A DNA stretch of 64,000 nucleotides, from NCBI GenBank assembly GCA_965206275.1, contig OZ242203.1, forward strand, positions 761,894-825,893. Reading direction: 5' to 3'. Positions within the stretch are counted from its first letter, which is position 1. Each line of letters begins with the position of its first letter. Of this stretch, positions 1,714-55,021 are shown piece by piece. Both the position numbers and the translations under genes were made by a program. The notes under the pieces were generated by a model. That model saw only the letters and a list, made by a program, of their open reading frames with translations. It did no database searches and was not told the origin of the DNA. The DNA is from Dehalococcoidia bacterium. Lineage in GTDB: Bacteria > Chloroflexota > Dehalococcoidia > UBA6926.

Positions 1714-3063
1714 GTGGGAACAGTGGCAATACAGGCTGACGAATCGGCAAGGGAATTCGTGCTCCGAACCGTCAAGGAGCGCAACGTCAAGTTCATCCGG
1801 CTATGGTTCTCGGACATCCTCGGGAACCTCAAGGGATTCTCATTGAGTCCCGCCCAGCTTGAGGTCGCGCTTGAGCACGGCATCGGTTTCGACGGCGCAT
1901 CCATTGAGGGATTCGCCCGCGTTGACGAATCGGACATGGTCGCCGTGCCGGACCCCTCCACCTTCGCCATCCTTCCCTGGCGTCCGGAGCATCCCGGCGT
2001 TGCCCGCATCTTCGCGGACATCTACACGCCGGAGGGCGAGCCGTTCGATGGTGACCCGCGCTACGTCCTCCGCCGCAACCTGCAGCGCGCGCAGGAACTC
2101 GGCTACACCTTCTACGTGGGGCCGGAGCTCGAGTACTACTACTTCCAAGCGCCGGACGACCCGACGCCGCTGGACAACGGCGGCTACTTCGACCAGATGC
2201 CGTTGGATGTGGCGTCAGACCTGCGCCGGGAAACCATCTTGACGCTGGAGGAGATGGGAATCGAGGCGGAATACAGCCATCACGAGGTCGCCCCCGGACA
2301 GGATGAGATTGTCCTCCGATACACGGACGCGCTTACAATGGCAGACAACTGCATGACCTACCGTCTTGTCGTGCGCGAGATTGCGCGGCAGCATGGCGTC
2401 CACGCCACGTTCATGCCGAAACCCATTACCACTGAGAATGGCAGCGGCATGCACACGCACCAGTCGCTCTTCAGGGGTGAGGCCAACGCCTTCTATTCCC
2501 CGGACGACCCAAACAACCTGTCCCCGATTGCCCTGAATTTTATCGCGGGGCTGCTTGAACACGCGCCGGCGTTCACGGCCATCACGAACCAGTGGATCAA
2601 TTCCTACAAGCGCCTTGTGCCGGGCTATGAAGCCCCGGTGTATCTGACGTGGGCGCATCGCAACCGTTCAGACCTCATCCGCATCCCGCGCGTGCCGCCC
2701 GGCAATCCGGAAGCTGCGCGTCTCGAATACCGGGCGCCTGATCCCGCCTGCAACCCGTACCTCGCCTTCTCCGTCATGCTCGCCGCCGGCCTTGACGGCA
2801 TCGAGCGCAATCTACAGCCGCCGGAGCCGTTGAACGAGAACGCCTTTGGCATGTCCGAAGAGCAGCGAGCCGAACTGGGCATCGGCGAACTGCCGAGGAG
2901 CCTCCATGAGGCCATCCTGCTAACGGAGCAGAGCGACCTTGTGCGGGGTGCGCTTGGTGACCATATATTTGACAGCTTCATCCGCAATAAGCGGATTGAG
3001 TGGAATTCCTTCCGCGCGCATGTGACCGACTTTGAGATTGACCGCTACCTGCAAACCCTATAA
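1714..3063 (+). CDS. Second glutamine synthetase family protein (449 aa, GSI-alpha/GlnA2-like paralog). It starts at GTG 1714 or GTG 1723.
   Basis: Full-length GS homology, clearly paralogous to the upstream glnA. It has a non-ATG start with GGGAAA/GGTGGGAA purine tracts upstream. Confidence 0.8.
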   Translation: MGTVAIQADESAREFVLRTVKERNVKFIRLWFSDILGNLKGFSLSPAQLEVALEHGIGFDGASIEGFARVDESDMVAVPDPSTFAILPWRPEHPGVARIFADIYTPEGEPFDGDPRYVLRRNLQRAQELGYTFYVGPELEYYYFQAPDDPTPLDNGGYFDQMPLDVASDLRRETILTLEEMGIEAEYSHHEVAPGQDEIVLRYTDALTMADNCMTYRLVVREIARQHGVHATFMPKPITTENGSGMHTHQSLFRGEANAFYSPDDPNNLSPIALNFIAGLLEHAPAFTAITNQWINSYKRLVPGYEAPVYLTWAHRNRSDLIRIPRVPPGNPEAARLEYRAPDPACNPYLAFSVMLAAGLDGIERNLQPPEPLNENAFGMSEEQRAELGIGELPRSLHEAILLTEQSDLVRGALGDHIFDSFIRNKRIEWNSFRAHVTDFEIDRYLQTL

Positions 3064-3108
3064 ACAACATCGCTCACCCCGTGAGTTTCAAGGGGGTTTT
3101 GTGTACAA

Positions 3109-6100
3109 TTGGCTATGGCCAATATAGAAGCACGTCGGTTGCGGCGTCCTGACGCGCCGCCACTGTACGATCCTATCCACGAAAAGGATGCTTGCGGAAC
3201 CGGCTTTATCGCACAGGTTTCCGGCGTCCCGTCGCATGACATCGTCAGGCAGGCAATCACTGCCGTCGTCAATCTCACGCACCGCGGCGCAGTGTCCGCG
3301 GACGCCCGAACGGGCGATGGCGCGGGCATCCTGACACAACTCCCCCGCAAGCTGCTCCTCCGCGAGTTGGCTGCACAGGGCATCTCAGACGTCTCCGGTG
3401 ATGACCTCGCCGTCGGCATGATCTTCTTCACACCCGCCGATCCTGAGGGCGGAAAACACGCCGTAAAGACCATCGAGAAAGAAACCGAGCGGCGTGGCCT
3501 TCGCTTCCTCGCATGGCGCGACGTGCCGAACGACCCGTCCGTGCTCGGCGAGCAGGCGCTGGCGACGCTCCCTGACATCCGCCAAGCGATCATCGCTTGT
3601 CCGCCTGACATGGACAAGGATGCCTTTGAGCGCGCGCTGTACTTGGTACGACGAGCCGTCGAGGCAGAGATGACTGGACGGGGTGACGACGAGTTCTACA
3701 TCCCGTCCTTTTCGTCACGGACGGTCGTGTACAAGGGTCTGCTCGTCGCGACGCAGTTGTCGGGCTTCTACAAGGACCTGGATGATCCGGATTTTGAGTC
3801 GGCGCTCGCCGTCTTCCACCAGCGCTATTCCACCAACACGTTCCCCAACTGGCAGCTCTCTCAGCCGTTCCGCTTCCTGGCCCACAACGGCGAGATCAAC
3901 ACGCTGCAGGGCAACCGCAACTGGTTGCGGGCACGTGAGGCCAACCTAAGCTCCGAGGTGTGGTCGAAGGACGATCTGCGCACGATAACCCCGGTGACAA
4001 ACCAGTCGGTCTCCGACTCCGCCTCGCTGGATCACGCATTTGAACTCCTGCAGGTGTCCGGTCGAAGCATCCTGCACTCAATGATGATGCTCACGCCGGA
4101 GGCGTGGGAAAACATGCCGCACATGGACGAGGACTTGCGCGGATTCTATCGATACCACGCGTCCCTCACCGAGCCGTGGGACGGCCCCGCCGCGCTGGCG
4201 TGGTCGGACGGCGAAACTGTCGGCGCGTCGCTGGACCGGAACGGCCTCCGTCCTGCCCGCTACATCATCACGGATGACGGCCTCGTGGTCATGGGATCAG
4301 AGGTCGGCGTCCTGCCGCATATCTCTACTGACCGCATCATCGAAAAGGGGCGGCTTGGCCCCGGGCACATGATCGCCGTTGACACGCGCAGCGGGCGCGT
4401 CATGAAGAACGGCGAGATCAAGAGCGAAATTGCCGTGCAGCAGCCCTATCGTGAGTGGGCGGAGCAGCAGTACATCCAGTTGAACGTGCCCATCCACGCC
4501 ATGCAGAACGGCGCGGGGCATCACATTGAACCTGAGATGGAGTTGATGCGTCGCCAAAAGGCCTTCGGCATGACGGCGGAAGAGCTGCTCATCATCATCA
4601 AGCCCATGGTGCAGGAGGGCAAGGACGCCACGTATTCGATGGGCGACGACACGCCGTTGGCAGTCTTCTCCCGGATGCAGCCCTCTCTGTTCAACTACTT
4701 CAAGCAGCGCTTCGCGCAGGTGACCAACCCGGCAATCGACCCCATCCGCGAGGCCATCGTCATGTCCGCCGAGACCTATCTCGGGCCCCGCGACAGCATG
4801 CTGCGTGAGCGAGAAGAGGCGGCGCACCTGCTCGCCATCCCCGGCCCCGTCATTCGCGACCACGAACTGGACGCCATACGCAGTGTCGACTCACCACATC
4901 TGTCGTCCGTCACACTGCCGGTAGTCTTCGCCGCTGAGGACGGACCGGACGCGCTGGAGCAGGCACTCGACGATCTCTGTGAGCAAGCAGTCTCCGCAGT
5001 GGACGAGGGTCACTCAATCATCATCCTGTCAGATAGGGCCGTCGACGAGCGACACGCCCCCATCCCGATGATGCTGGCCCTCGGGGCAGTCCATCACGAC
5101 CTCATCCGACGCGGCAAGCGCATGAAGGCGAGCCTTGTGTGCGACACCGGCGAGGCGCGAGAAGTACACCACTTCGCGGCGCTCATCGGCTACGGCGCGA
5201 GCGCCGTCAATCCCTACCTCATCTGGGAGAGCCTGCGTGAACTCTTCGAGCGCGGGGAGTTCAGTGAGGAAGAAGACGAAGACTATACGATCGCCAAGTA
5301 CCAGGCGTCGGCCAACAAGGGCGTGCTGAAGATCATGTCCAAGATCGGCATATCTACTGTCACGTCCTACCACGGCGCGCAGATTTTCGAGGCTATCGGC
5401 CTGAGCGACGACATCGTTCAGAAGTGCTTTGCGGGTACGCCGTCGCAGGTGGGCGGCTTGGGATTCCGCGAGCTCGCAACGGACGTCCTCGCACGGCATG
5501 ATCGCGCCTTCAACTCTGAACTCACGCCGAAGTCTAAACTCGAAGACCACGGATTCATCCGCTATCGCAAGAGCGGAGAGTTCCACGCCAACAACCCCGT
5601 CGTTGTGCGCACGCTCCACAAGGCCGTTCGCTCTGGCGACTACGAGGACTATGTTCCCTACCGCGACGCCCTGAACAATCGGCCGGTCTCCTCGCTGCGG
5701 GACACGCTCACCTTCAACAAGACGCGTGAGCCGATTTCCATCGACGAGGTGGAGCCGATAGAAGAAATCTGGAAGCACTTCACCACGGGCGCAATGTCGC
5801 TCGGCGCGTTGAGCGCGCGCGCCCACGAGACACTGGCGATGGCTATGAATCACATCGGCGGTGCGGCTGACACGGGCGAAGGCGGCGAGGATCCACGGCG
5901 GTTCCGTGGCCTGACGCGCGGCTACAACGCCAATTCCAAGATCAAGCAGATTGCCTCAGGCCGATTCGGCGTCACGCCGGAATATCTCGCCATGGCCGAA
6001 GAAATCGAAATCAAGATGGCGCAGGGCTCCAAGCCCGGCGAGGGCGGACAGTTGCCCGGCCACAAGGTCATTGAATACATCGCATACCTCCGGCACACGC

Positions 6101-7692
6101 AGCCCGGCATCACGCTGATCTCGCCGCCGCCCCACCATGACATCTACTCCATTGAGGACCTGGCGCAGCTCATCTATGACCTCAAGACGGTCAATCCCCG
6201 AGCCAAGGTCAGCGTCAAGCTGGTGGCGGAAGCAGGCGTCGGCACTATTGCAGCCGGCGTCGCCAAGGGCTACGCGGACAAGGTCCAGATCTCCGGCCAT
6301 GAGGGCGGCACGGGCGCAAGTCCGCTGTCATCCATCAAGAACGCCGGCACGCCGTGGGAGCTTGGTCTCACAGAAGCGCAGCAAGTCCTGGTGATGAATG
6401 ACCTGCGCGGCCGCGTCAAGCTGCGCACGGACGGTGGTATCCGCACGGGGCGTGATGTCGTCATCGCAACGATGCTCGGCGCGGACGAAGTCGGCTTTGG
6501 CACCGTTGCCTTGCTCGCATTGGGCTGCGAAATGGCGCGCCAGTGTCATCTGAACAGCTGCCCCGTCGGGGTGGCCACGCAGCGAGACGATCTGATCGCC
6601 AAGTTCAACGGCTCCGTTGAGAATGTCGTAAATTACTTCACCTTCGTCGCAACGGAGGTCCGCGAAATCCTGGCTAGCATCGGCGTACGGTCCTTGAATG
6701 ACATCATCGGCCATCCGGAGTTCCTGAAGCTGCGCCCCGACATTGAGGAGTTTGAGCGCGCCAGGTTCGTGGACGCGCTCAAGCTAATCGCCCCCGCCGA
6801 CCCCACGTTCCAACGCCCGGTCAGCAATGAGCAGGACCGCAACGACAGGCCGAACGACGAGAAGCTCGACGACCGTATCCTGTCGGAGATCACGGGCGCT
6901 ATCGAGAGTAGAACTCCCGTCAAACTGTCCTACGACATCAGGAACGCCCAGCGCACGGTTGGTGCGCGCATCTCCGGAGCCATCGCGCATCGCTACGGCG
7001 TGAAGGGGCTGCCTCCCGGCACCATAGACCTCTCATTCACCGGTTCCGCTGGGCAGAGCTTTGGCGCATTCCTCAATGAGGGCGTGCGGATGACGCTCAC
7101 AGGCGAGGCGAATGACTATGTTGGCAAGGGAATGGCGGGCGGCGAACTCGTCATCAGGCCTCCTGCCGATGCAACCTTCGAGTCGCACAAGAACTCCATC
7201 ATCGGCAACACCTGTATCTACGGCGGCACAGGCGGCTACTTCTATGTTGCCGGACGAGCCGGAGAGCGGTTCGCCGTCCGCAACAGCGGCACGCAGGCCG
7301 TCGTGGAGGGAGTCGGGGATCACGGCTGCGAGTACATGACCAGCGGCATCGTGGTCGTCCTCGGAACCGTGGGACGCAACTTCGGCGCGGGCATGTCCGG
7401 CGGCGCGGCGTTCGTCCTGGACGAGACAGGCGATTTCCCGTCGCTCTACAACCAGGAACTGCTGGTTCTGGACAGGCTTGAAGACGATGACGACGAGCGG
7501 CACGTGCTGGAGCTCATTGAACGCCATGCAGAGACCACGGGCAGCAAGCGCTCCGCTGAAATCCTCGCCGATTGGCCCAGATACCGCGCAATGTTCTGGA
7601 AGGCGTTGCCGGCCCAGTTGCGGGACAAGAATCTCTCGCTCGCCGAGGTACTCAAGAAGGTTGAGGGAGCCGCGCTCGTAACCGCGCGGTAA
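3109..7692 (+). CDS. gltB: Glutamate synthase large subunit (1527 aa). It contains the Ntn amidotransferase, central, FMN/Fe-S and C-terminal GXGXG domains, and no gltD small-subunit gene follows it.
   Basis: The N-terminal ACGTGF motif carries the Cys nucleophile. The protein has the length and domain order of a ferredoxin-type or stand-alone GOGAT large subunit. The frame opens at TTG 3109, with an ATG at 3115. Confidence 0.9.
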   Translation: MAMANIEARRLRRPDAPPLYDPIHEKDACGTGFIAQVSGVPSHDIVRQAITAVVNLTHRGAVSADARTGDGAGILTQLPRKLLLRELAAQGISDVSGDDLAVGMIFFTPADPEGGKHAVKTIEKETERRGLRFLAWRDVPNDPSVLGEQALATLPDIRQAIIACPPDMDKDAFERALYLVRRAVEAEMTGRGDDEFYIPSFSSRTVVYKGLLVATQLSGFYKDLDDPDFESALAVFHQRYSTNTFPNWQLSQPFRFLAHNGEINTLQGNRNWLRAREANLSSEVWSKDDLRTITPVTNQSVSDSASLDHAFELLQVSGRSILHSMMMLTPEAWENMPHMDEDLRGFYRYHASLTEPWDGPAALAWSDGETVGASLDRNGLRPARYIITDDGLVVMGSEVGVLPHISTDRIIEKGRLGPGHMIAVDTRSGRVMKNGEIKSEIAVQQPYREWAEQQYIQLNVPIHAMQNGAGHHIEPEMELMRRQKAFGMTAEELLIIIKPMVQEGKDATYSMGDDTPLAVFSRMQPSLFNYFKQRFAQVTNPAIDPIREAIVMSAETYLGPRDSMLREREEAAHLLAIPGPVIRDHELDAIRSVDSPHLSSVTLPVVFAAEDGPDALEQALDDLCEQAVSAVDEGHSIIILSDRAVDERHAPIPMMLALGAVHHDLIRRGKRMKASLVCDTGEAREVHHFAALIGYGASAVNPYLIWESLRELFERGEFSEEEDEDYTIAKYQASANKGVLKIMSKIGISTVTSYHGAQIFEAIGLSDDIVQKCFAGTPSQVGGLGFRELATDVLARHDRAFNSELTPKSKLEDHGFIRYRKSGEFHANNPVVVRTLHKAVRSGDYEDYVPYRDALNNRPVSSLRDTLTFNKTREPISIDEVEPIEEIWKHFTTGAMSLGALSARAHETLAMAMNHIGGAADTGEGGEDPRRFRGLTRGYNANSKIKQIASGRFGVTPEYLAMAEEIEIKMAQGSKPGEGGQLPGHKVIEYIAYLRHTQPGITLISPPPHHDIYSIEDLAQLIYDLKTVNPRAKVSVKLVAEAGVGTIAAGVAKGYADKVQISGHEGGTGASPLSSIKNAGTPWELGLTEAQQVLVMNDLRGRVKLRTDGGIRTGRDVVIATMLGADEVGFGTVALLALGCEMARQCHLNSCPVGVATQRDDLIAKFNGSVENVVNYFTFVATEVREILASIGVRSLNDIIGHPEFLKLRPDIEEFERARFVDALKLIAPADPTFQRPVSNEQDRNDRPNDEKLDDRILSEITGAIESRTPVKLSYDIRNAQRTVGARISGAIAHRYGVKGLPPGTIDLSFTGSAGQSFGAFLNEGVRMTLTGEANDYVGKGMAGGELVIRPPADATFESHKNSIIGNTCIYGGTGGYFYVAGRAGERFAVRNSGTQAVVEGVGDHGCEYMTSGIVVVLGTVGRNFGAGMSGGAAFVLDETGDFPSLYNQELLVLDRLEDDDDERHVLELIERHAETTGSKRSAEILADWPRYRAMFWKALPAQLRDKNLSLAEVLKKVEGAALVTAR

Positions 7693-7879
7693 GGAGAAAG
7701 AGTCGCCACACCGGCTTGCCATTTGAGGCCTTTCTTGCTGGTGGCGACGGCAAATTCGGGGGATCGTACCTCTTTCCCGATTACGTGATAGACTACCCCA
7801 TCCGGCGTTAGCCGATGATTCTTGGCCGCGATGCGCTCGAGGGGGGATAGAGCCTCGCCGCCACACAAAGGAGATTCGT

Positions 7880-8608
7880 ATGAAGGCTGTCATTTTGGCA
7901 GCGGGACATGGCTCCCGCTTTGGCCAATACGGTGTCCGCCATAAGGCGCTCCTGCCTGTCAACGGGCAGACCGTGATCGACCACACACTGGACGGGATTC
8001 AACAGGCCGGTATAACGGACATCTGCATCGTCATCGGCCATGAGGGCCAGGCGCTGCAGGACGTTCTTGGCGACGGTTCAACACGCGGCGCCGATATCAC
8101 CTATGTCATGAACACCGAGCACCATCGGGGAAACGCCGTTTCCGTCCTTACTGCGAAAGATGAGGTCGGCACAGACCCGTTCATCCTCTCCATGGCCGAT
8201 CACATGCCTTCCTCAGACATCATTATTGGGCTCGTTGATGGGGCAAAGGAGAACGGGTGGGACCTGAATGCGCTCGCCGTGGATTTCGACCCTGACGACC
8301 GCGATGTCGAGGAAGGAACACGCGTCAGTGTGGATCATCACGGCCACATCGTGGCGATCGGCAAGAACCTGCCGAACTGGAACGGCATTGATTGCGGCGT
8401 CTTCCGGTTCACGCCCGCCATCTTTGAGGCCATAGAAGCCAAACTCGTGGAGGACAGTTCCCACGATGAGTTGAGCCAGGCCGTGACGCGTATGATCCTC
8501 TCCGGCAACGATCTCCATGCGCACGACGTTGACGGCGCGTTCTGGTTCGACGTTGACACGTGGGAAGACCTGAAGCTGGCGCGCGAGGCGCTCGGGTACG
8601 TCACGTAG
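7880..8608 (+). CDS. Sugar-phosphate nucleotidyltransferase resembling inositol-1-phosphate cytidylyltransferase (IPCT).
   Basis: It has the MKAVILAAGxGxRFG NTP-transferase N-terminus. Block-by-block it matches my recollection of the Archaeoglobus IPCT domain (ILSMADH, GAFWFDVDTWEDL). AAGGAGA lies 7 nt upstream of the ATG. Confidence 0.6.
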   Translation: MKAVILAAGHGSRFGQYGVRHKALLPVNGQTVIDHTLDGIQQAGITDICIVIGHEGQALQDVLGDGSTRGADITYVMNTEHHRGNAVSVLTAKDEVGTDPFILSMADHMPSSDIIIGLVDGAKENGWDLNALAVDFDPDDRDVEEGTRVSVDHHGHIVAIGKNLPNWNGIDCGVFRFTPAIFEAIEAKLVEDSSHDELSQAVTRMILSGNDLHAHDVDGAFWFDVDTWEDLKLAREALGYVT

Positions 8609-8617
8609 CGCCGACGC

Positions 8618-9241
8618 ATGCACGAAGGCTTCGTCTCCCGGTATCTGAACCGACGCTTCTCGCGCCCCATCGCGCGGGCGCTCGCCCATACCCCCGTCAC
8701 GCCAAACCAGGTCTCGCTCGTCGCGTTCCTGATGGCCGCCGGCGCGGCGGTGCTGTTCTACTACGACCTCAACATCTGGGCGGGTGTTCTCGTCCAGGCG
8801 TCATCCATCGTGGACGGCGTTGATGGCGATCTGGCACGCGCCAAGGACATGGCCAGCCGCTTCGGCGGGTTCTTCGATGCCCTGCTGGATCGATATGCGG
8901 ATGTACTAATCCTGGCCGGACTGGGCTACTGGTCCCATGCATTCGAACCGGGCGTGTCCATCCCCGTGGTCTCGACGGCTGCTCTTGCAGCAATTGTTGG
9001 CTCGCTGATGATCAGCTACAGCCGCGCCCGCGCAGAAGCAACGTTTGGCCAGCCCTTTGAGGGCCTGCCCGGCGCGCTCGCGTCACGCGACCTGCGCCTA
9101 TTCGTGATCATGATCGGCGCAATCATCGGCCAAGGGGTAGCAACACTGGCCGTCATCGCCGTCCTCACCAACCTGGTCGTCATCTGGCGCCTCGGCGTCG
9201 CCCGCTGGGGCAACGTAGGCTCGGGCGATGGCAACCACTAA
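8618..9241 (+). CDS. CDP-alcohol phosphatidyltransferase family membrane protein resembling di-myo-inositol-phosphate-phosphate synthase (DIPPS).
   Basis: It carries the DG(x)2AR(x)8G(x)3D(x)3D signature (DGVDGDLARAKDMASRFGGFFDALLDRYAD) and several transmembrane segments. The N-terminal amphipathic segment (SRYLNRRFSRPIA...PNQVSL) resembles the DIPPS domain of bifunctional IPCT/DIPPS. Confidence 0.6.
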   Translation: MHEGFVSRYLNRRFSRPIARALAHTPVTPNQVSLVAFLMAAGAAVLFYYDLNIWAGVLVQASSIVDGVDGDLARAKDMASRFGGFFDALLDRYADVLILAGLGYWSHAFEPGVSIPVVSTAALAAIVGSLMISYSRARAEATFGQPFEGLPGALASRDLRLFVIMIGAIIGQGVATLAVIAVLTNLVVIWRLGVARWGNVGSGDGNH

Positions 9242-9311: not shown

Positions 9312-10226
9312 ATGGACTACCAGAATCTGCTCTATGAGAAGCAGCGCAACGGCGTGCTCATCACGCTCAACCGCCCCGAGGTAATGAACGCCATCTCCGA
9401 CGAACTGGACATCGAGCTTCACCACGCCCTCGATGCCGCCGATGCCGATCCCGAGGTGCGCGCCATCGTGCTCACCGGCGCGGGGCAGGCCTTCTCTGCC
9501 GGATTCGATATCGCAGGCGGCGGAGCCGACTACGAATGGCCCTACGGCCTCCCCAAGGGCTCCAACGTCGCCTCGGAGATCGACCGCTGGCGCACACGCT
9601 TCTGGAAGAAGGAGCACGGCCGTATCGCCCGCGTCATTGATGAGATCGACACGCCGATCATCGCCGTCGTCAGCGGCTGGTGCATGGGCGGCGGCTCCTG
9701 GTACGCGCTGACCTCACACATCACCATCGCGGCGGAAGACGCCGTCTTTGGGCAGGTCGAGGTCCGCATGATTTCGGACGACAACTACATCTGGATTCAC
9801 CACGCCGGCTACAAGAACGGCCTGCGCTACGCCCTCACCGGCGACCACATCGACGCCCAGGAAGCGCTGCGAATCGGCATCGTCAACAAGGTCGTCCCAA
9901 CAAAGGACGACGCGCTTGAAGAGGCTTTTCAACTGACAGAGCGTTTGGCTCTTGTCAGCCCGGAGACCGTCAAGATTAACCTTGCCGTCGCCATGCGCGG
10001 CATTGAGATGCAGGGCATCCACAACGTCATGCGGCTCAACTCCGAGCTTGCCGCGGCCGTCATCGTCTCCAAGCGCGAGGATTTCACTGCCCCGCTCGAG
10101 GAGGCGCGTAAGGAAGGCGGTCTCCGCGCATTCATTCGCAAGCGTGATGAGCCGTTCCAACCGGAGCCGTTCGGACCACGCTCCGCCAAAGCGCGTGAAG
10201 AACGTGAGCGCGAAAAAGGCTCATGA
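9312..10226 (+). CDS. Enoyl-CoA hydratase/isomerase (crotonase) family protein with a charged C-terminal tail.
   Basis: Crotonase-fold homology. GGGGGAAGGG lies upstream of the ATG. It is a paralog of the gene at 25868-26764. Confidence 0.8.
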   Translation: MDYQNLLYEKQRNGVLITLNRPEVMNAISDELDIELHHALDAADADPEVRAIVLTGAGQAFSAGFDIAGGGADYEWPYGLPKGSNVASEIDRWRTRFWKKEHGRIARVIDEIDTPIIAVVSGWCMGGGSWYALTSHITIAAEDAVFGQVEVRMISDDNYIWIHHAGYKNGLRYALTGDHIDAQEALRIGIVNKVVPTKDDALEEAFQLTERLALVSPETVKINLAVAMRGIEMQGIHNVMRLNSELAAAVIVSKREDFTAPLEEARKEGGLRAFIRKRDEPFQPEPFGPRSAKAREEREREKGS

Positions 10227-10813
10227 TCTGCGCTAGAAGGAGCGGCGGGCGGTGAATCTCCTGCATCTCGCCGCCACGCCGGAAACCGGCCCCGATCAAG
10301 CCGTGCTTGAGCGCGCGCCTCTGGCCCCTCTCAGTTGCACCCGAACCCTTCTGCGGTTACGGGCATCCTCTCTCTTATCAACCCCCGCTACGGAACAATC
10401 CGAACACTCACATCGCCCTGCCCCGGTCGTTCTCAGCCTTGAAGTCGACAGTCAGACCTCGACAGACGCTCCACCCGCTGTCACTCCTGCCTGTGTCAGG
10501 ACTATAGTCGCCCTCGCCTCGCTTGCGCGCAGGCGAAGAAATGGCCATGTCCCCCCCACCACATCGGAGTGCTGTGCCACGTCGCAGACGGCACGTTTGC
10601 AATTCAACGTGGAGAAGGTATGCGCACACCACGCCGCATCCACTCCTGAACAACTCACGCCATCTCACGAGACGGCGGTGCATGGACCGACCGTCATCCG
10701 CCATTCCCACAGACGCAGCCGTCCGAGATTACGGTCTGCGTGCCGACTGCCCCGACTACCCGACGCTCCAATTGACGTTGAAAATCCTTTCTTCGTTCAA
10801 TTGGAGGTAACTC

Positions 10814-11857
10814 ATTTCCCGATTACTCATCGGACTCATTGGAGTCCTGACACTACTGTCGGCAGCCGCCTGTCAGGCGGATTCTGATTCTCCGTCCACC
10901 ACTGACCCGACAGCGACAGAGACCGATACCAACGGCGAGCTTGTCGTCTATTCAGGCCGCAGTGAGAGCCTTGTCGCGCCGCTCATCGAGCAGTTCGCAG
11001 AGGCGAGCGGTATCGATGTCAGCGTCAAATACGGCAGCACGTCGGAGATAGCCGCCACCATCCTTGAGGAGGGCACGAACTCGCCCGCGGACATCTTCTT
11101 CGCCCAAGACCCGGGAGGGCTTGCCGCAGTGGAGTCCATGTTCGCAACACTGCCAAGCAACGTGCTGGATCGCGTTCCCGCCAACTTTCGCTCGCCGGAT
11201 GGCAAGTGGGTAGGACTATCGGGACGCGCGCGCGTCATCGTCTACAACACGGATCGGGTTTCGCCGGGCGACCTGCCGAGCGACCTGCGTGGATTCACAG
11301 ACCCGGAGTGGGAGGGCCGCATCGGTTGGCCGCCCACCAACGGCTCATTCCAGGCGATGGTGACTGCAATGCGTGTCGTCTGGGGCGAGGACGAGACCCG
11401 TGCCTGGCTTGAGGGAATCCAGGCGAACAATCCACAGATCTACCCCAAGAACACGCCTACGGTCGCGGCAGCCGGCGCGGGGGAAATCGACGTCGGATTC
11501 GTCAACCACTACTACCTGTACCGCTTCCTTGCCGAAGAGGGTGAGACGTTCGCTGCCCGCAACGCGCACCTCACAGGCGGCGGACCCGGCGCGATGGTCC
11601 TCGTCGCCGGAGCAGGCGTCCTTGACGGCGCGGACAACATCGACAACGCGATTCGATTCATCGAGTTCCTGTTGTCCACCGAAGCTCAGCAGTACTTCGC
11701 TGACGAGACATACGAATATCCCGTCGTGGAGGGTATAAGAGTCAATCCACTGCTCACCCCTCTCTCGGAAATCAACGCGCCGCAGATCGACATGGCTGAC
11801 CTCGGAGACCTCGAGGGCACAGTCGACCTTCTCCGTGATACGGGAATCCTTCCGTAA
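10814..11857 (+). CDS. ABC transporter substrate-binding lipoprotein of the Fe(3+)/FbpA-like family 1. The start is probably a non-canonical ATT at 10814.
   Basis: The reading frame is continuous from 10811 through ORF 11129-11857. It has a lipoprotein signal (LLIGLIGVLTLLSAAAC) and GGAGG lies 6 nt before the ATT at 10814. No ATG, GTG or TTG follows the upstream stop in this frame. The mature domain resembles FbpA/AfuA. Confidence 0.65.
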   Translation: MSRLLIGLIGVLTLLSAAACQADSDSPSTTDPTATETDTNGELVVYSGRSESLVAPLIEQFAEASGIDVSVKYGSTSEIAATILEEGTNSPADIFFAQDPGGLAAVESMFATLPSNVLDRVPANFRSPDGKWVGLSGRARVIVYNTDRVSPGDLPSDLRGFTDPEWEGRIGWPPTNGSFQAMVTAMRVVWGEDETRAWLEGIQANNPQIYPKNTPTVAAAGAGEIDVGFVNHYYLYRFLAEEGETFAARNAHLTGGGPGAMVLVAGAGVLDGADNIDNAIRFIEFLLSTEAQQYFADETYEYPVVEGIRVNPLLTPLSEINAPQIDMADLGDLEGTVDLLRDTGILP

Positions 11858-15213: not shown

Positions 15214-16038
15214 CTAGTAGTCCCCCGGCGTCCACAGATGCGTGGATGTTGCTGGGCGGCGAGTCATCAGTTCACGAATGGCGGCGTGGGTCGTCGGCCC
15301 CGCCGCGATAACGCCGTCAATCAGCGTGTCCCTCTGATTGAACTGCATGGGACGCCCACCCAGGTCCGTCACCACGCCGCCCGCCGCCTCTACAAGCAGC
15401 GCTCCGGCGGCAACGTCCCATTCATTCTTCGGCTCCAGGCTGATAACCGCATCCGCTTTGCCTGCTGCAACGAGCGCCATCTTGTACGCGATGGAGCCAA
15501 TTGTTCGCACCTTGAATGATGCGCCACGAAAACGATGCCACGAACCCCATCGAACCTCGCTCCGCGACGCAAGAATCGTCACGTCTGAGGACAGTTCTTC
15601 ATGGTCGGTCACACGCGTACCGTCACTGTTGAGCGTGGCCGTGCCGCCACGTTCTGCGAGATACGTCTCTTCCGCCCACGGGTTCAGGATTCCCGCGGCA
15701 GCGATCTCCCCGTCCACGGATAGCCCGACGGACACGCACCACTCGGCTTGTCCCGCAAGGAAGCCCCGCGTACCGTCGATGGGATCGACAACCCACACGC
15801 GCTCCATGCCAATGCGATGGCCATCATCATGGGTTTCCTCTGACAACCACCCCTCTCCGGGACGAACGAGCGCTTTATGCAAGAGTTCATCGAGAGCGTG
15901 GTCGGCCTCCGTCACCGGGCCGTCCCAGCCCTTGTGCTGCACATACACCGAAGATGGCGAGAACGTGCTGGCAAGCTCGGCAGACTCCTCCAGCGCGGCC
16001 GCAATCCGACCTACATCTGTGTCTCCGTCGCTGGTCAT
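15214..16038 (-). CDS. Inositol monophosphatase family protein (IMPase/SuhB-like).
   Basis: It has the WVVDPIDGTRGF metal-binding motif and the IMPase fold. It lies 28 bp downstream of the VWA gene on the same strand. Confidence 0.8.
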   Translation of the reverse strand: MTSDGDTDVGRIAAALEESAELASTFSPSSVYVQHKGWDGPVTEADHALDELLHKALVRPGEGWLSEETHDDGHRIGMERVWVVDPIDGTRGFLAGQAEWCVSVGLSVDGEIAAAGILNPWAEETYLAERGGTATLNSDGTRVTDHEELSSDVTILASRSEVRWGSWHRFRGASFKVRTIGSIAYKMALVAAGKADAVISLEPKNEWDVAAGALLVEAAGGVVTDLGGRPMQFNQRDTLIDGVIAAGPTTHAAIRELMTRRPATSTHLWTPGDY

Positions 16039-18525: not shown

Positions 18526-18643
18526 CCCGGTGACTCTGGCGAAGCGGACCCACCCGTTCCCATCCCGAACACGGAAGTGAAACGTTTCAGCGCCGACGAT
18601 ACTGGAGGGGCAGCCCTCTGTGGAAAATAGGTCGTTGCCGGGG
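18526..18643 (+). rRNA. rrf: 5S ribosomal RNA, unlinked to any 23S gene.
   Basis: It matches the 5S consensus (CCCGTTCCCATCCCGAACACGGAAGTGAAAC...GCGCCGA-GATACTGG). Helix I closes between 18526-18534 and 18634-18642. A TACAAT element sits about 10 nt upstream and a T-rich tract follows the gene. Confidence 0.85.
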
Positions 18644-25867: not shown

Positions 25868-26764
25868 TTAGTCCCGCGCCGCAGCAGACCTCGGCCCGAA
25901 CGGCTCTGGCTGGAAGGGGCCGTCCCGTTCCTGCAGGTACGCCCTCAGGCCGCCCTCTTTACCGGCGTCCTCCATCTTGCGCTTAAAGTCTTCGCGCTGG
26001 GACGTGTGCGCCAGTGCGGACAGCTCCGCGTTCAGGTTCCACGCATTGTGGAATCCCATCATGTTCAGGCCCTGCGTCGCGACGGCCAAATTGATCTTCA
26101 CCGTCTCCGGGCTGACCAGCGCGATGCGCTCGCCGATGTACGTGCACTCCTCCATCAGGTCCTCGTGCGGCACAACCTTGTTGACCAGCCCGATCCGCAG
26201 CGCCTCCTGCGCGTCGATGTGGTCGCCTGTCAGACCGTAGCGCAGCGCGTGCTTGTAGCCCGCCAGCAGCGTCCAGATGAAGTTCGTGTTGGAGATATGA
26301 CGAATTTCCGGCTGACCGAACACCGCGTTCTCGGACGCAATCGTGATATGGGTCGTCAGCGCGTACCACGAGCCCCACGCCAGAGCCCAGCCGTTGATCG
26401 CGCCGATGATCGGCGTCGTCAGCTCCCACATGTGCATCAGGCGGCGGATGCCCGTCCTGTCCTGCGTGCGCCACTGATCGAGGAACGATGCGACGGACTG
26501 ACCTTCCTGCAGACCATACGGCCACACGGTATCGGAGTTTCCGCCACCCGCGCCAAGCGCGAGGTCCGCGCCCGCGCTGAACGCCCTGCCAGCGCCCGTC
26601 AGGATGATGTATCGAATGTCCGGGTCCTGCTCCGCCTCGTCGAACGCGGCATGCACGTCGCCGCGCAAGCCCTGGTTGAATGCGTTCATCTGCGCGGGGC
26701 GATTCAGCGTGATAACAACGCCCTTGCCCTGCCGCTCATACAGCACATTCTCGTACTCAGCCAT
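25868..26764 (-). CDS. Enoyl-CoA hydratase/isomerase family protein, a paralog of 9312-10226.
   Basis: The ATG at 26764 (MAEYENVLYERQGKGVVITLNRP) is preceded by AGGAGGAA 7 nt upstream. It shares with the paralog the C-terminal tail ...KEGGLRAY...PFQPEPFGPRSA. Confidence 0.8.
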   Translation of the reverse strand: MAEYENVLYERQGKGVVITLNRPAQMNAFNQGLRGDVHAAFDEAEQDPDIRYIILTGAGRAFSAGADLALGAGGGNSDTVWPYGLQEGQSVASFLDQWRTQDRTGIRRLMHMWELTTPIIGAINGWALAWGSWYALTTHITIASENAVFGQPEIRHISNTNFIWTLLAGYKHALRYGLTGDHIDAQEALRIGLVNKVVPHEDLMEECTYIGERIALVSPETVKINLAVATQGLNMMGFHNAWNLNAELSALAHTSQREDFKRKMEDAGKEGGLRAYLQERDGPFQPEPFGPRSAAARD

Positions 26765-26937
26765 GTAGTGATTCCTCCTAACCCCCGCCACCGTGGGCGG
26801 CATCAGAACTGATTGTTTGACAAGCTTACCATTGCCATACAGATGTGCTACACTTCGGAACAGGAGTTCCACGAACGCACGTTCGCTCGGCCCCAAACAA
26901 CGTGGAACACAGACGGCAGAACGGGAGGAATGGTATT

Positions 26938-33972: not shown

Positions 33973-35430
33973 ATGAGAGCGATGCAGTGGTTGATGACCC
34001 GCCAGCGTGTCCCCGCCATCCTCGCCGCAACTGGCATCGTAACCCTGTTGCTCATGCTCCTCCGGCCCGCCGTCGCGCATGCGCAAGGTGTTGAACAGGA
34101 AACCGCTTTCGTCTTCAACACCCTCTCATTCCTCATCTGGGGCGCGCTCGTCATGTGGATGTGCGCCGGCTTCACCATGCTGGAAACCGGATCCGTTCGG
34201 ACCAAGAACGCCGCCATGATCTGCATGAAGAACATCGGCCTCTATTCCATCGCCGGACTTGCCTACTACATCATTGGCTACAACCTCATGTACGTGGACG
34301 TTGGCCGAGATCTGAACATCCTCGGCCTCAACGTGGGCGATCTCATCGGCACGTTTACCCTCACCTACAGTTCGTCCGCAGCGGAAATGGCGCTGCTTGA
34401 AGCTGAAGCAGGGGCCTCGGCGGCGGGTGTCCTGGAAGAATCCACCTATTCCTCGATGTCCGACTGGTTCTTCCAGATGGTCTTCGTCGCCACCACCGCC
34501 TCCATCGTCTCCGGCGCCCTCGCTGAGAGAGTCAAGATGTGGTCGTTCTTCATATTCACCCTGTGCCTCACGGCATTCATCTACCCGACAATCGGCGCGT
34601 GGACGTGGGGCGAAGGCTGGCTGAACCAACTCGGCTTCACCGACTTTGCCGGCTCCACCATCGTCCACAGCACTGGCGGCTGGGCTGCGTTGGCCGGTCT
34701 GATTGTCGTCGGGCCACGATTGGGCAAGTTCCGCCGCGATGGCACTGCGCGTCCCACCCCGCCCTCCAACATCATCTCCGTCACGTTGGGAGTCTTTATC
34801 CTCTGGTTCGGCTGGTTGGGATTCAACGGCGGATCGCAGCTCGCCCTCGGCAGTGCCGTCGACGCCGTCTGGATTAGCATCGTGCTGGTGAACACCAACC
34901 TGTCCGCAGCATCCGGCGTGCTGGTCGCCCTCTTTACGTCCCGATACATCCTGGGGCGCACGGATTTGTTCGCCGTCCTCAACGGCGCGATAGCTGGCCT
35001 TGTCTCCATCACCGCCGCCCCCAACTTCGTCGACCACTATTGGGCAATCATCATTGGCGCAGTCGGAGGACTTATCTGCACGGTCGGCCTGCGACTCCTT
35101 GAACGCATCAAGGTCGATGATGTCGTCGGCGCAGTCCCCGCCCACCTCTTTGCGGGCATCTGGGGCACGCTCGCGGCGGCCATCACGGTTGGCGCGCAAC
35201 TCCACGTCCAACTGCTGGGCGTCGTCGTCATCGGCGTTACTGTCTTCGGCATTGCCTGGCTCGTCTGGAAGGCGCTGGACATGACGCTGAGCGCCAGGGT
35301 GTCACGCCAAGTCGAAGAGCTCGGTCAGGACGCCGGCGAACTCCGCATGGAGTCATACCCCGAATTCGTCCTCATGCCCGAACCTGACTACGACGATGAC
35401 CTGGACCCCGAGATGCCAGCGACAAGCTAG
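33973..35430 (+). CDS. amt: Ammonium transporter (Amt family) with a signal peptide. No glnK gene is adjacent.
   Basis: It has the Amt transmembrane core (GFTMLETGSVRTKN..., DFAGSTIVH). GGAAGGAG lies upstream of the ATG. Confidence 0.9.
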   Translation: MRAMQWLMTRQRVPAILAATGIVTLLLMLLRPAVAHAQGVEQETAFVFNTLSFLIWGALVMWMCAGFTMLETGSVRTKNAAMICMKNIGLYSIAGLAYYIIGYNLMYVDVGRDLNILGLNVGDLIGTFTLTYSSSAAEMALLEAEAGASAAGVLEESTYSSMSDWFFQMVFVATTASIVSGALAERVKMWSFFIFTLCLTAFIYPTIGAWTWGEGWLNQLGFTDFAGSTIVHSTGGWAALAGLIVVGPRLGKFRRDGTARPTPPSNIISVTLGVFILWFGWLGFNGGSQLALGSAVDAVWISIVLVNTNLSAASGVLVALFTSRYILGRTDLFAVLNGAIAGLVSITAAPNFVDHYWAIIIGAVGGLICTVGLRLLERIKVDDVVGAVPAHLFAGIWGTLAAAITVGAQLHVQLLGVVVIGVTVFGIAWLVWKALDMTLSARVSRQVEELGQDAGELRMESYPEFVLMPEPDYDDDLDPEMPATS

Positions 35431-45052: not shown

Positions 45053-46237
45053 CTACCTCGGCAACCCCAGCCCTCGCGTAGCCACGATATTCCGCTGAAT
45101 CTCCTTCGTCCCGTGTCCGAACGTCCGGCCCGTGCTCATCAGCGCGTTCACCCCGATGAACCCGTCCATCGGCGCCCACTCTGCCCCATACGGCATCACG
45201 AGCGCCGCGTCGCCGATAATGCGCGTGAATCCGCGCCACAGCTCCTGCACCAGCTCGCCGGACAGCACCCGCGAAATCGACGCAATCCGTGACACGTCCT
45301 CGCCCTGCCTGCTGTCCCACGCGCCCTTCCAGCAGATCGCCCGGAACATGCCGAGCTTCACACGCAGGTCCGCAAGAAGTTGACGATTAATCGGATCGTC
45401 AAGCGGCGTGCCGCCGTCAACGCGATACGTCCGCGCAAAGTCCACGAACCGCTCCCACTCGCGTAGCAGCGAAGCGGGCGAACCAACCTCCACGCGCTCC
45501 GCGGTCAGCGACGCCGCCATCACGTACCACCCGCGATTCTCCTCACCGAGCATATAGCGCGAGGGCACCCGCACGTCCTCGAAGAACTCCTCGCTCCAGC
45601 GACGTCGACCCGCCATGTCATGGATCGGACGGATCGTGATGCCGGGAGAATCCAGCGGCACAAAGAAGATTGAGAGGCCTCGATGCTTGGGCGCGTCCGT
45701 GTCCGTCCGAACCAGCATCCGTATCCACGTCGAATGATGCGCCGTTGACGTCCACATCTTCTGGCCGTTGATCACATAGTCATCGCCGTCACGCACCGCC
45801 CGCGTCGTCACACCCGCCAGGTCGGAGCCGTTGCCGGGCTCCGAGAGTCCGAGCGCGATGGGCATATCCGCCGTCGCGATCTTCGGCAGCCATTCCTCTT
45901 TCTGCCACGGCGTCCCGTGCAGGATCACGGCGTCCCCGCCGAACGCCCCGCTCGCCGGCGCGCCTCGATACGCCATCTCCTCGCGGTACGTCAGCATCCG
46001 TGTGAATCCGGCGTCCTGCCCGCCGTGCTCCGTCGGCCAGTGCATCGTGTACCAACCCTTGTCCACGAGCTTCTTGGCGAATTGATGCGCCGCCTCCAGC
46101 GCCTCCGGATCATCCAGGTGCCACGACGCGTTGGACACGTCGTTCATGTGGTAGCGGGTATCATCCCAATTTGCCTGCACAAAATCACGAATCTCATCAC
46201 GAAACGCGAGGTCCTCAACCGACTGCTGGAAGTCCAT
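45053..46237 (-). CDS. Acyl-CoA dehydrogenase family protein.
   Basis: ACAD fold blocks are present (...GSDLAGVTT..., ...INGQKMWTS..., C-terminal ...RGLGLPR). It is a paralog of 47379-48590. Confidence 0.85.
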   Translation of the reverse strand: MDFQQSVEDLAFRDEIRDFVQANWDDTRYHMNDVSNASWHLDDPEALEAAHQFAKKLVDKGWYTMHWPTEHGGQDAGFTRMLTYREEMAYRGAPASGAFGGDAVILHGTPWQKEEWLPKIATADMPIALGLSEPGNGSDLAGVTTRAVRDGDDYVINGQKMWTSTAHHSTWIRMLVRTDTDAPKHRGLSIFFVPLDSPGITIRPIHDMAGRRRWSEEFFEDVRVPSRYMLGEENRGWYVMAASLTAERVEVGSPASLLREWERFVDFARTYRVDGGTPLDDPINRQLLADLRVKLGMFRAICWKGAWDSRQGEDVSRIASISRVLSGELVQELWRGFTRIIGDAALVMPYGAEWAPMDGFIGVNALMSTGRTFGHGTKEIQRNIVATRGLGLPR

Positions 46238-47378: not shown

Positions 47379-48590
47379 CTACCGAGGCAGCCCCAATCCT
47401 CTCTGCGCGATCAGATTCCGCTGGATCTCCGTCGTGCCGCCGCCAAGGCCGCTCCCATGCATCGCGCCGTAGCGGAAGCCCGGGTAGCCGCCCATCGGAG
47501 CGCGCGACTCGCCAAGGCCGAGCCGGCCGTACTCCTGCAGGATGCTCGCCATCAATTGCGGCCACTTCTTGCCGAGGTTGTCGCCCCACGCCTTGCCCAT
47601 GGAGCCTTCCTTCACGGGCAGCTCGCCGCGAGACTGCATGAACGCGACGCGGTAGGACAGCATCCGACGCGTCTCAAGCTCGATCTTCAGATCGGCCACC
47701 TTGTGGCGGATGAGCGGGTCGTTCAGCACCGGATCGCCATTGAATCGGGTATCTCGCACGACCGTGAGGAATCGATCAAGCTCGCCGAGGTACTTGGCTG
47801 CGGTCTCAATGCCCGAACGCTCAAAGGAGAGCGTCGTCATCGCGGCGTACCACCCGCGGTTCTCCTCGCCGATGAGGTTCCGAACAGGAACCCGCACGTT
47901 ATCAAAGAACACCTCGCTCCAGCGGCGCGTGCCCGTCATATCGAACAGCGGTCGCAGGGTGACGCCGGGGACCACCTCGCCCTCATCGCGCAGCTGCATC
48001 AGGACGTAGCTGATGCCGCGGTGCTTCGGCGCGTCCGGGTCTGTGCGAACCAGCACGTGGTACCACTCGCCGTAGTGCGCGCCGGACGTCCAGATCTTCT
48101 GGCCGTTGATTATGTAATCGTCGCCGTCGCGGACTGCCCGCGTCTGCAGGCTTGCCAGGTCGGAGCCCGCGTTCGGCTCGGAGAACCCCTGCGCGAAATC
48201 GATGTCCGCGTTGGCCATCTTCGGCAGAAACTCTTCCTTCTGCCACTCCGTGCCATGAATCATCAGCACGGGCGCGACGAGCCCGCCGCCGAACGATGCC
48301 GGAGCGCCCTCATAGGCCATCCCCTCGCGATAGGCAAGCTGCGTGGTGATGGCGGCGGCGCGGCCGCCGTACTCCTCCGGCCAGTGCATCGTCCACCAGC
48401 CCTTGTCCACCAGCTTCTTTGAGAAATCTCGCTGCGCTTTCAGAGCCTCATCATCCGCGTGATACGGAGACAGCAGGCCCATGTCATCCCAGCCGCGCGG
48501 GTCGGCGACCTTCTCGCTCCACTCGGTTCGCGTAAATGCGCGCGCCTCATCCTGCAGAGCCTGGTCGTCCGCGTTCAATCGAAAGTCCAT
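47379..48590 (-). CDS. Acyl-CoA dehydrogenase family protein, a paralog of 45053-46237.
   Basis: ACAD fold. Its domain order and C-terminus parallel 45053-46237. Confidence 0.85.
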   Translation of the reverse strand: MDFRLNADDQALQDEARAFTRTEWSEKVADPRGWDDMGLLSPYHADDEALKAQRDFSKKLVDKGWWTMHWPEEYGGRAAAITTQLAYREGMAYEGAPASFGGGLVAPVLMIHGTEWQKEEFLPKMANADIDFAQGFSEPNAGSDLASLQTRAVRDGDDYIINGQKIWTSGAHYGEWYHVLVRTDPDAPKHRGISYVLMQLRDEGEVVPGVTLRPLFDMTGTRRWSEVFFDNVRVPVRNLIGEENRGWYAAMTTLSFERSGIETAAKYLGELDRFLTVVRDTRFNGDPVLNDPLIRHKVADLKIELETRRMLSYRVAFMQSRGELPVKEGSMGKAWGDNLGKKWPQLMASILQEYGRLGLGESRAPMGGYPGFRYGAMHGSGLGGGTTEIQRNLIAQRGLGLPR

Positions 48591-54986: not shown

Positions 54987-55021
54987 CCTTGAACCGCGTA
55001 TCGAGGGATAGAGGGGAGACA

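Follow-up and report, generated by a model that had tools for sequence, protein, structure and literature searches.

The closest described relatives of the gene pair considered here are enzymes that join an L-myo-inositol-1-phosphate cytidylyltransferase (IPCT) to a membrane-bound synthase of di-myo-inositol-phosphate-phosphate (DIPPS), as in the single IPCT/DIPPS polypeptide of Archaeoglobus fulgidus. Structural analysis has associated an architecture of six transmembrane (TM) helices with those CDP-alcohol phosphotransferases that use soluble acceptors, whereas the enzymes with lipid acceptors add three to four C-terminal helices, and has shown that an R-x-x-R motif together with a Ser binds the inositol-phosphate acceptor (Clarke 2015, PMC4634129). 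In phosphatidylinositol-phosphate (PIP) synthases (PIPS), the donor groove is hydrophobic, with a conserved Pro (P153 in MtPIPS) that stacks on an acyl chain of CDP-diacylglycerol (CDP-DAG), and the second Arg binds the phosphate of the inositol phosphate, whereas the corresponding pocket of the A. fulgidus DIPPS (AfDIPPS) and of AF2299 is small and polar (PMC4634129). IPCT/DIPPS homologues have also been reported in non-thermophilic deep-sea Thaumarchaeota, with transcripts at ~2 °C (PMC7265257, PMC8397731, PMC10773090); in the literature searched, we found no report of such homologues in SAR202 or Dehalococcoidia. In this study, we analysed a 64,000-nucleotide stretch (hereafter the window) of contig OZ242203.1 from a Dehalococcoidia bacterium, which is bacterial, has ~62% GC and carries recA, ffh, glnA, gltB and amt, and in which two adjacent genes resemble the two halves of IPCT/DIPPS:

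7880..8608, + strand: IPCT-like cytidylyltransferase, 242 aa, soluble NTP_transferase fold (PF00483/PF12804)
8618..9241, + strand: DIPPS-like CDP-alcohol phosphotransferase, 207 aa, juxtamembrane helix and six TM helices (PF01066)

On the basis of the homology, architecture and signature residues observed in the two proteins, of their conserved pairing and of domain fusion in their relatives, we consider it reasonably likely that the pair acts as a split IPCT/DIPPS, making di-myo-inositol phosphate (DIP) or a close analogue in a mesophilic marine bacterium. The earlier note on this DNA had recognised the two genes from motifs of the Archaeoglobus protein, and this part of it stands: both open reading frames (ORFs) lie exactly where it had placed them, side by side and each with Pfam support (NTP_transferase/NTP_transf_3 with E values of 2e-16 to 3e-18 for the first, PF00483 spanning residues 2-234; CDP-OH_P_transf with an E value of 8e-12 and 46 bits, against a cut-off of 22, for the second), and the quoted motifs are present in both translations and align to the Archaeoglobus proteins. 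The comparison with family models that it had proposed places both proteins in the same way, the top matches being to the two halves of the IPCT/DIPPS model NF041135 (128 and 138 bits), and the assignment of the pair to the IPCT/DIPPS type of enzyme is well supported.

The N-terminus of the IPCT-like protein reads MKAVILAAGHGSRFG and shows the NTP_transferase fold with its LAAGxGxR loop. When the window protein was set against that of Archaeoglobus, MKAVILAAG aligned to MKAVILAAG, and GAFWFDVDTWEDL to GELWMDVDTKEDV. The NCBIfam model NF041135 (bifunctional IPCT/DIPPS) was matched over positions 1-217, the next family scoring 98 bits, and among proteins of solved structure the best matches were the A. 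fulgidus IPCT (2xme, 70 bits over residues 1-238) and 4mnd (68 bits), the next solved nucleotidyltransferase reaching 46 bits. In 68 fused proteins of IPCT-DIPPS type, the N-terminal domain is homologous to the window protein over its full length, at 27-49% identity. The product of 7880-8608 is predicted to make CDP-inositol from CTP and L-myo-inositol-1-phosphate.

In the DIPPS-like protein, SRYLNRRFSRP aligned to SRKINRKISTR of Archaeoglobus and DGVDGDLARA...GGFFDALLDRYAD to DGCDGEIARA...GGYVDSILDRFVD. The CDP-alcohol signature is complete (D66xxD69G70xxA73R74...G83xxxD87xxxD91), each of its residues being kept in at least 157 of 162 relatives. Scoring against NCBIfam gave 138 bits for the C-terminal half of NF041135 (positions 227-413), 119 bits for the archaetidylinositol-phosphate (AIP) synthase model (AIPS, NF040950) and 99 bits for the PIPS model (NF045883), and proteins of solved structure ranked similarly, with AF2299 at 99 bits, the membrane domain of the A. 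fulgidus IPCT/DIPPS at 93 bits and PIP synthases at ~60 bits. The AlphaFold2 (AF2) model (pLDDT 89.7) consists of a juxtamembrane helix and six TM helices only (residues 5-22, 29-48, 52-75, 81-109, 115-143, 157-170 and 173-197), the protein ending at residue 207, so that the model has the soluble-acceptor architecture, free of the extra C-terminal helices, as defined by structural work (PMC4634129). Foldseek comparison of the model gave TM-scores of 0.86 for AF2299 (root-mean-square deviation 2.0), 0.83 for 4mnd and 0.73-0.80 for PIP synthases, with PgsA and the lipid-acceptor enzymes CEPT1/CHPT1 far lower at 0.5-0.63 (0.55-0.63 for CEPT1/CHPT1).

The residues that line the two substrate sites bear on the question of whether the protein could be an ordinary PIP or AIP synthase that uses CDP-DAG, with the upstream nucleotidyltransferase functionally unrelated. 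The acceptor pocket is shared with such enzymes: S133 and R157-D158-L159-R160 are present, R157 and R160 aligning with R152 and R155 of MtPIPS and S133 with its S132, while the second Arg of PIPS (R195, in TM6) gave no alignable counterpart. A stretch of the form SY-x-R-ARAEA also resembles PIPS, and the AIPS and PIPS models do match the protein, yet at 119 and 99 bits it stays below their curated cut-offs (180 and 170, respectively) as well as below its own DIPPS score. The donor pocket departs from that of the lipid synthases: N11, R12 and S15 of the juxtamembrane helix and D158 make a polar NRxxS groove where PIPS has F, A, T and R-P-E-R, and Asp158, an Asp in 161 of 162 family members, replaces the TM5 Pro (MtPIPS P153) that stacks on the acyl chain in the CDP-DAG groove. 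Of 162 DIPPS-like sequences, among them AfDIPPS, AF2299 and those of Thermococcus and Thermotoga, 157-161 keep N11, R12, S15, R157, D158 and R160, and a stand-alone homologue from Thermotoga sp. ranks the DIPPS, AIPS and PIPS models in the same order as the window protein (127, 106 and 63 bits). The earlier note had named a better match to phospholipid-headgroup synthases as the outcome that would speak against its assignment; both the scores and the NRxxS and R-D-x-R residues point the other way.

Related genomes also hold a genuine lipid-type enzyme, apart from the pair. The Dehalococcoidia chromosome of locus L023 carries an IPCT/DIPPS-like pair and, elsewhere, a gene for myo-inositol-1-phosphate synthase (MIPS) beside a family 4 glycosyltransferase (GT4) and another CDP-alcohol phosphotransferase, which ranks the models the opposite way (AIPS 156, PIPS 138, DIPPS 52 bits), and the same arrangement was found for L058:

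L084, 6001-8968: MIPS, GT4 glycosyltransferase and lipid-type CDP-alcohol phosphotransferase cluster of a related Dehalococcoidia genome
L058, 15500-18743: the same cluster in a second related Dehalococcoidia genome

This cluster suggests synthesis of phosphatidylinositol or a glycosylated derivative of it, apart from the IPCT/DIPPS-like pair. Since L023 and L058 hold a separate lipid-type paralogue with reversed scores, the two paralogous types coexist and the window gene is of the DIPPS type; for the same reason the lipid role is already filled in these two Dehalococcoidia genomes.

The gene order itself is conserved. Among the best 80 related loci from a scan of species-representative genomes (45-94% identity in the DIPPS-like protein), 75 have an IPCT-like gene in the same orientation 700-780 nt upstream, and in two of the five exceptions the DIPPS-like gene is too near a contig end to show an upstream gene; an order that recurs so widely goes far beyond a chance adjacency. 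At least 456 species-representative genomes encode a relative, and 1.84 billion cluster representatives, searched exhaustively, yielded 1,558 clusters at 50% identity with E values of 1e-10 or less. Of the 150 nearest cluster representatives, 78 are at least 400 aa long and match in their C-terminal half, and 68 of these 78 have an N-terminal domain homologous to the IPCT-like protein of the window, that is, they are fused. The window carries the split form of a very often fused protein. Taken with the donor-site residues and the separate lipid-type paralogue, the pairing in 75/80 loci and the fusion in 68 homologues make a PIP or AIP synthase beside an unrelated nucleotidyltransferase very unlikely.

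The earlier note was correct that the pathway is divided between two separate ORFs, although the division is not special: the remaining 72 of the 150 nearest representatives are shorter than 400 aa, and hence not full-length fusions, one of them coming from Thermotoga sp., and a homologue search seeded with a fragment of AfDIPPS returned almost only short stand-alone proteins. In a neighbour-joining tree of 163 sequences (100 bootstraps, deep branches weakly supported), fused and split forms are interspersed, which, together with the stand-alone copy in Thermotoga sp., indicates that the split arrangement is ordinary. As a separate observation, two loci in Dehalococcoidia metagenome-assembled genomes (MAGs) of Tara Oceans (L022, 4521-7495, and L020) have the DIPPS-like gene and a HAD phosphatase gene with no adjacent IPCT-like gene, and in L022 a major facilitator superfamily transporter gene lies upstream on the opposite strand.

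The last step of a DIP pathway requires a phosphatase, for which the earlier note had pointed to an IMPase-family gene near the pair:

15214..16038, - strand: IMPase-family phosphatase (PF00459, 160 bits), an unproven candidate for the phosphatase of di-myo-inositol-phosphate-phosphate (DIPP)

The ORF is real, and its link to the pathway is weak. The protein falls below the cut-offs of the NCBIfam models that it matches (HisN 120 and CysQ 116 bits; archaeal FBPase/IMPase 88 bits against a cut-off of 264). The gene lies 6.6 kb from the pair on the opposite strand in the window and at a variable 6.6-10 kb in relatives, and its proximity to the pair is confined to close relatives (at least 72% identity), as would be expected from shared ancestry alone. 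On the other hand, a gene for an HAD-IB, MtnX-like phosphatase (TIGR01489, 84 bits), absent from the window, directly flanks the pair, on its upstream or its downstream side, in 12 loci of sister clades (the HAD-IB loci include L011, L013, L014, L015, L018-L022, L058 and L072). This HAD-IB gene is a candidate for the product phosphatase, and offers better evidence for a phosphorylated product than the IMPase gene does.

The same gene bears on an alternative in which the pair serves a Kennedy-type synthesis of inositol lipids, CDP-inositol being made and its phosphoinositol moved to a lipid alcohol such as diacylglycerol, ceramide or a Chloroflexi-specific lipid. Heaver et al. (2022) described a triad of NTP-transferase, CDP-alcohol phosphatidyltransferase and HAD protein beside MIPS in makers of inositol sphingolipids (PMC9246714), and the 12 sister-clade loci hold this triad, with the HAD-IB phosphatase beside the pair; the lipid role of the corresponding cluster in Bacteroides vulgatus and Prevotella is proposed and unconfirmed (PMC9246714). 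We regard this route as improbable for several reasons: (i) the membrane protein has six TM helices only, where lipid-acceptor enzymes have three to four more at the C-terminus (PMC4634129), and resembles CEPT1/CHPT1 with a TM-score of only 0.55-0.63; (ii) the R-x-x-R phosphate site of enzymes with inositol-phosphate acceptors is kept; (iii) an adjacent phosphatase implies a phosphorylated product, unlike direct transfer to diacylglycerol; (iv) relatives already have a lipid-type paralogue, beside MIPS and the GT4 glycosyltransferase; and (v) the B. vulgatus enzyme appears to be larger, as far as can be judged indirectly from a BLAST E value of 0 against ~1e-150 for its partners of ~250 aa.

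MIPS directly adjoins the pair in four loci of Bathyarchaeia (L044, L051, L071 and L074, in the order MIPS-IPCT-DIPPS) and in one of Anaerolineae (L053). This adjacency in five loci connects the family with inositol-1-phosphate and lends indirect support to the specificity for CTP and inositol-1-phosphate predicted for the cytidylyltransferase. MIPS and the pair share a chromosome in two more distant Dehalococcoidia (L023/L084 and L058); L083 holds no MIPS, and in the window and most Dehalococcoidia loci MIPS is not beside the pair. The last observation would also suit a different polyol-phosphodiester solute, such as glycero-phospho-inositol, diglycerol phosphate or an analogue, formed with another alcohol phosphate or another acceptor. 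CDP-glycerol is also a substrate of AfDIPPS, and diglycerol phosphate builds up in Archaeoglobus. The nearest structure, AF2299, which has no assigned product, binds CDP-glycerol in the equivalent donor pocket (PMC4634129). The five loci with adjoining MIPS and the closer match of the nucleotidyltransferase to IPCT than to the next solved enzyme (70 against 46 bits) speak against such a solute, which we likewise regard as improbable.

The earlier note further took the pair as the mark of a (hyper)thermophilic host, in which the IMPase gene at 15214-16038 would supply the phosphatase. In its favour, DIP in cultured organisms is known from thermophiles (PMC8397731), and the IMPase-family gene does lie 6.6 kb away. 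The well-supported proteins of the window (13,940 residues) have an IVYWREL fraction of 0.397, which corresponds to ~37 °C by the Zeldovich relation, a charged-minus-polar bias (CvP) of 4.2 and an (E+K)/(Q+H) ratio of 1.56, all mesophile values. The nearest relatives (86-94% identity) are uncultured Dehalococcoidia MAGs from sponge (SB0661_bin_39, APA_bin_32), from coral (Plut_88869), these sources being judged from isolate-name prefixes, and from a Tara sample (scaffold TARA_SAMEA6039926), whereas more distant ones come from open-ocean (Tara) metagenomes and, judging from the isolate names CB21/CB27, from the Canada Basin; estimates of the IVYWREL type for related loci fall mostly at 20-50 °C, with considerable noise. 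Because composition predicts ~37 °C and the relatives are from sponge, coral and seawater, the thermophile inference fails, and with the IMPase gene syntenic in close relatives only, this combination is extremely unlikely. The host is a mesophilic marine, SAR202-like member of the Dehalococcoidia, and the pair is not a heat marker.

The split IPCT/DIPPS that we favour would work as follows. The soluble cytidylyltransferase (7880-8608) would activate L-myo-inositol-1-phosphate with CTP to give CDP-inositol, which the six-TM transferase (8618-9241) would hold in its polar donor pocket (N11, R12, S15 and D158) while a second inositol-1-phosphate is bound at the R157-x-x-R160 phosphate site. DIPP would then form with the help of the catalytic D91 and of the Asp triad that binds metal, and a phosphatase, for which the IMPase-family gene is a candidate only, would release DIP, an anionic solute, or an inositol phosphodiester closely analogous to it. 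The solute would probably serve as an osmolyte or protein stabiliser rather than in heat protection. It is also possible, though unlikely, that the module makes an undescribed phosphoinositol compound instead of classical DIP, either a new solute or phosphoinositol carried on a lineage-specific alcohol; the module, widespread in mesophilic marine and host-associated Dehalococcoidia, would then use a CDP-inositol chemistry that so far has been assayed in thermophiles only.

Several points weigh against the synthesis of DIP or a close analogue by the pair and have to be set beside the evidence above: (i) MIPS was not found in the 64-kb window by phmmer and tblastn with yeast, bacterial and Dehalococcoidia queries; (ii) no phosphatase is clearly linked to the pair; (iii) the DIPPS-like protein does not reach the equivalog cut-off of NF041135 (580 bits), which is set for the whole fused protein of Thermococcales and which a half protein cannot reach, fused homologues from outside Thermococcales scoring ~300-314 bits; (iv) the protein is as close to AF2299, which has no assigned substrates, as it is to AfDIPPS; (v) in the neighbour-joining tree, deep nodes have bootstrap values of 0-20, and the clade of the window (41) does not form the sister group of that of Archaeoglobus and Thermococcus (100); (vi) measurements of DIP to date come solely from organisms that grow above ~55 °C (PMC8397731); and (vii) for the enzymes of the Chloroflexota clade, the substrates, product and physiological role are predicted ones.

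At the level of the locus, the stop of the IPCT-like ORF and the start of the DIPPS-like ORF are separated by 9 nt on the same strand, and the GC content at third codon positions (0.74 and 0.78, respectively) is similar to that of neighbouring real genes. Two signals were noted ahead of the pair:

7713..7730, + strand: terminator-like hairpin with a T-rich tail, just past the gltB stop codon (7692); from a consensus scan, weak
7868..7873, + strand: AAGGAG Shine-Dalgarno sequence, 6 nt ahead of the start codon (ATG) of the IPCT-like gene, read from the sequence

The pair is a two-gene module, probably with translational coupling. The hairpin weakly suggests that it is transcribed separately from gltB; the number of terminator matches that the consensus scan gave in the region is not above shuffled expectation, and a promoter scan, itself uninformative, gave no sigma-70-like site ahead of the pair.

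In the ~10 closest relatives, the pair always follows gltB. A functional link of the pair to gltB, to the enoyl-CoA hydratase or to the Fe(III)-type ABC transporter was considered and rejected, as the synteny holds only in these ~10 relatives. Nitrogen-assimilation genes (glnA, gltB and amt) lie in the window at 1714-7692 and 33973-35430, and in close relatives a further glnA and the gene for a GlnR-like regulator lie just upstream (L081, 665-4444). Downstream of the pair, a conserved ORF with no family match (10252-10887) precedes the gene for the solute-binding protein of the ABC transporter (11129-11857, + strand), which has a GTG start and encodes 242 aa, against 239 aa in L083 and 357 aa in the close relative L081; the shorter form could reflect N-terminal truncation or a different start call.

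Elsewhere in the window, a lone 5S rRNA gene (18526-18643, + strand; RF00001, 89 bits) is flanked by genes for a VWA-domain protein and a TrmI-type tRNA methyltransferase; 16S and 23S genes are absent from the 64 kb, and the rRNA genes appear to be unlinked. Acyl-CoA metabolism is rich in paralogues, of the kind described for SAR202, with acyl-CoA dehydrogenases at 45053-46237 and 47379-48590 and enoyl-CoA hydratases at 9312-10226 and 25868-26896. Two adjacent genes on the + strand (54989-57400 and 57451-59865) encode proteins of ~800 aa, each with two family III CoA-transferase domains.

These results bring to light a large, uncharacterised family of split IPCT/DIPPS type in moderate-temperature marine Chloroflexota, including sponge and coral symbionts and open-ocean lineages. 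Were the product DIP, the solute would be a general marine osmolyte or stabiliser and not a heat marker, extending to abundant bacteria what has been suggested for deep-sea Thaumarchaeota; an IPCT/DIPPS-like pair should not be taken as a sign of thermophily, whether by annotation pipelines or by readers. The contrast of NRxxS and R-D-x-R with F/A/T and R-P-E-R offers a simple signature by which DIPPS-type and lipid-type inositol-phosphate transferases can be separated.

Compared with the known systems, the pair is most similar to the IPCT/DIPPS of A. fulgidus (AF0263; 4mnd, IPCT domain 2xme) and the Thermococcales proteins of NF041135, with full-length homology of both domains. With the A. fulgidus enzyme it shares the CDP-alcohol signature, the fold of juxtamembrane helix JM1 and six TM helices (TM-score 0.83; ~33% identity between the membrane half of 4mnd and the AF2 model), the NRxxS, PN and R-D-x-R residues and the way in which the two activities are ordered, but it is encoded by two genes in a mesophilic bacterial host rather than as one polypeptide. 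The stand-alone DIPPS-type protein of Thermotoga sp. (P0268, 205 aa) has the same split, the same size and the same DIPPS > AIPS > PIPS pattern, yet belongs to a thermophile and is only weakly related in sequence to the window clade. AF2299 (4o6m/4o6n/4q7c) is the best match of the membrane protein in both sequence (99 bits) and structure (TM-score 0.86) and has the same polar donor-pocket residues, but contains, within one polypeptide, an extramembrane N-terminal domain as well, where the window has a full-length separate IPCT-like gene. Homologues of similar size recur, representatives of 330-350 aa (P0369, P0407, P0415, P0441, P0503, P0505 and P0510) joining an N-terminally truncated IPCT-like domain to a DIPPS-like membrane domain and matching NF041135 over positions 99-418, as in P0407 (~340 aa).

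The PIP synthases of bacteria (PgsA1; 6h53, 5d92, 6wm5) and the AIP synthases of archaea have the same fold, 27-30% identity to the window protein and a common acceptor site for inositol-1-phosphate (S133 and R157-x-x-R160 in the window), but differ in their hydrophobic lipid-donor groove, with Pro for Asp158 and F/A/T for N/R/S. The cluster of B. vulgatus and Prevotella (PMC9246714), compared here by description, has the same three protein families as the sister-clade triad and shares the idea of a CDP-inositol intermediate; it is a proposed lipid maker beside MIPS, whereas the window has neither an HAD nor a MIPS neighbour and its transferase is of the soluble-acceptor kind. The deep-sea Thaumarchaeota (PMC7265257, PMC8397731, PMC10773090) have the same predicted pathway in cold or moderate marine waters and so provide a precedent against reading it as a mark of thermophily; their genes are fused, archaeal and have been read as an adaptation to pressure, whereas those of the window are split and bacterial and have shallow host-associated forms among their relatives.

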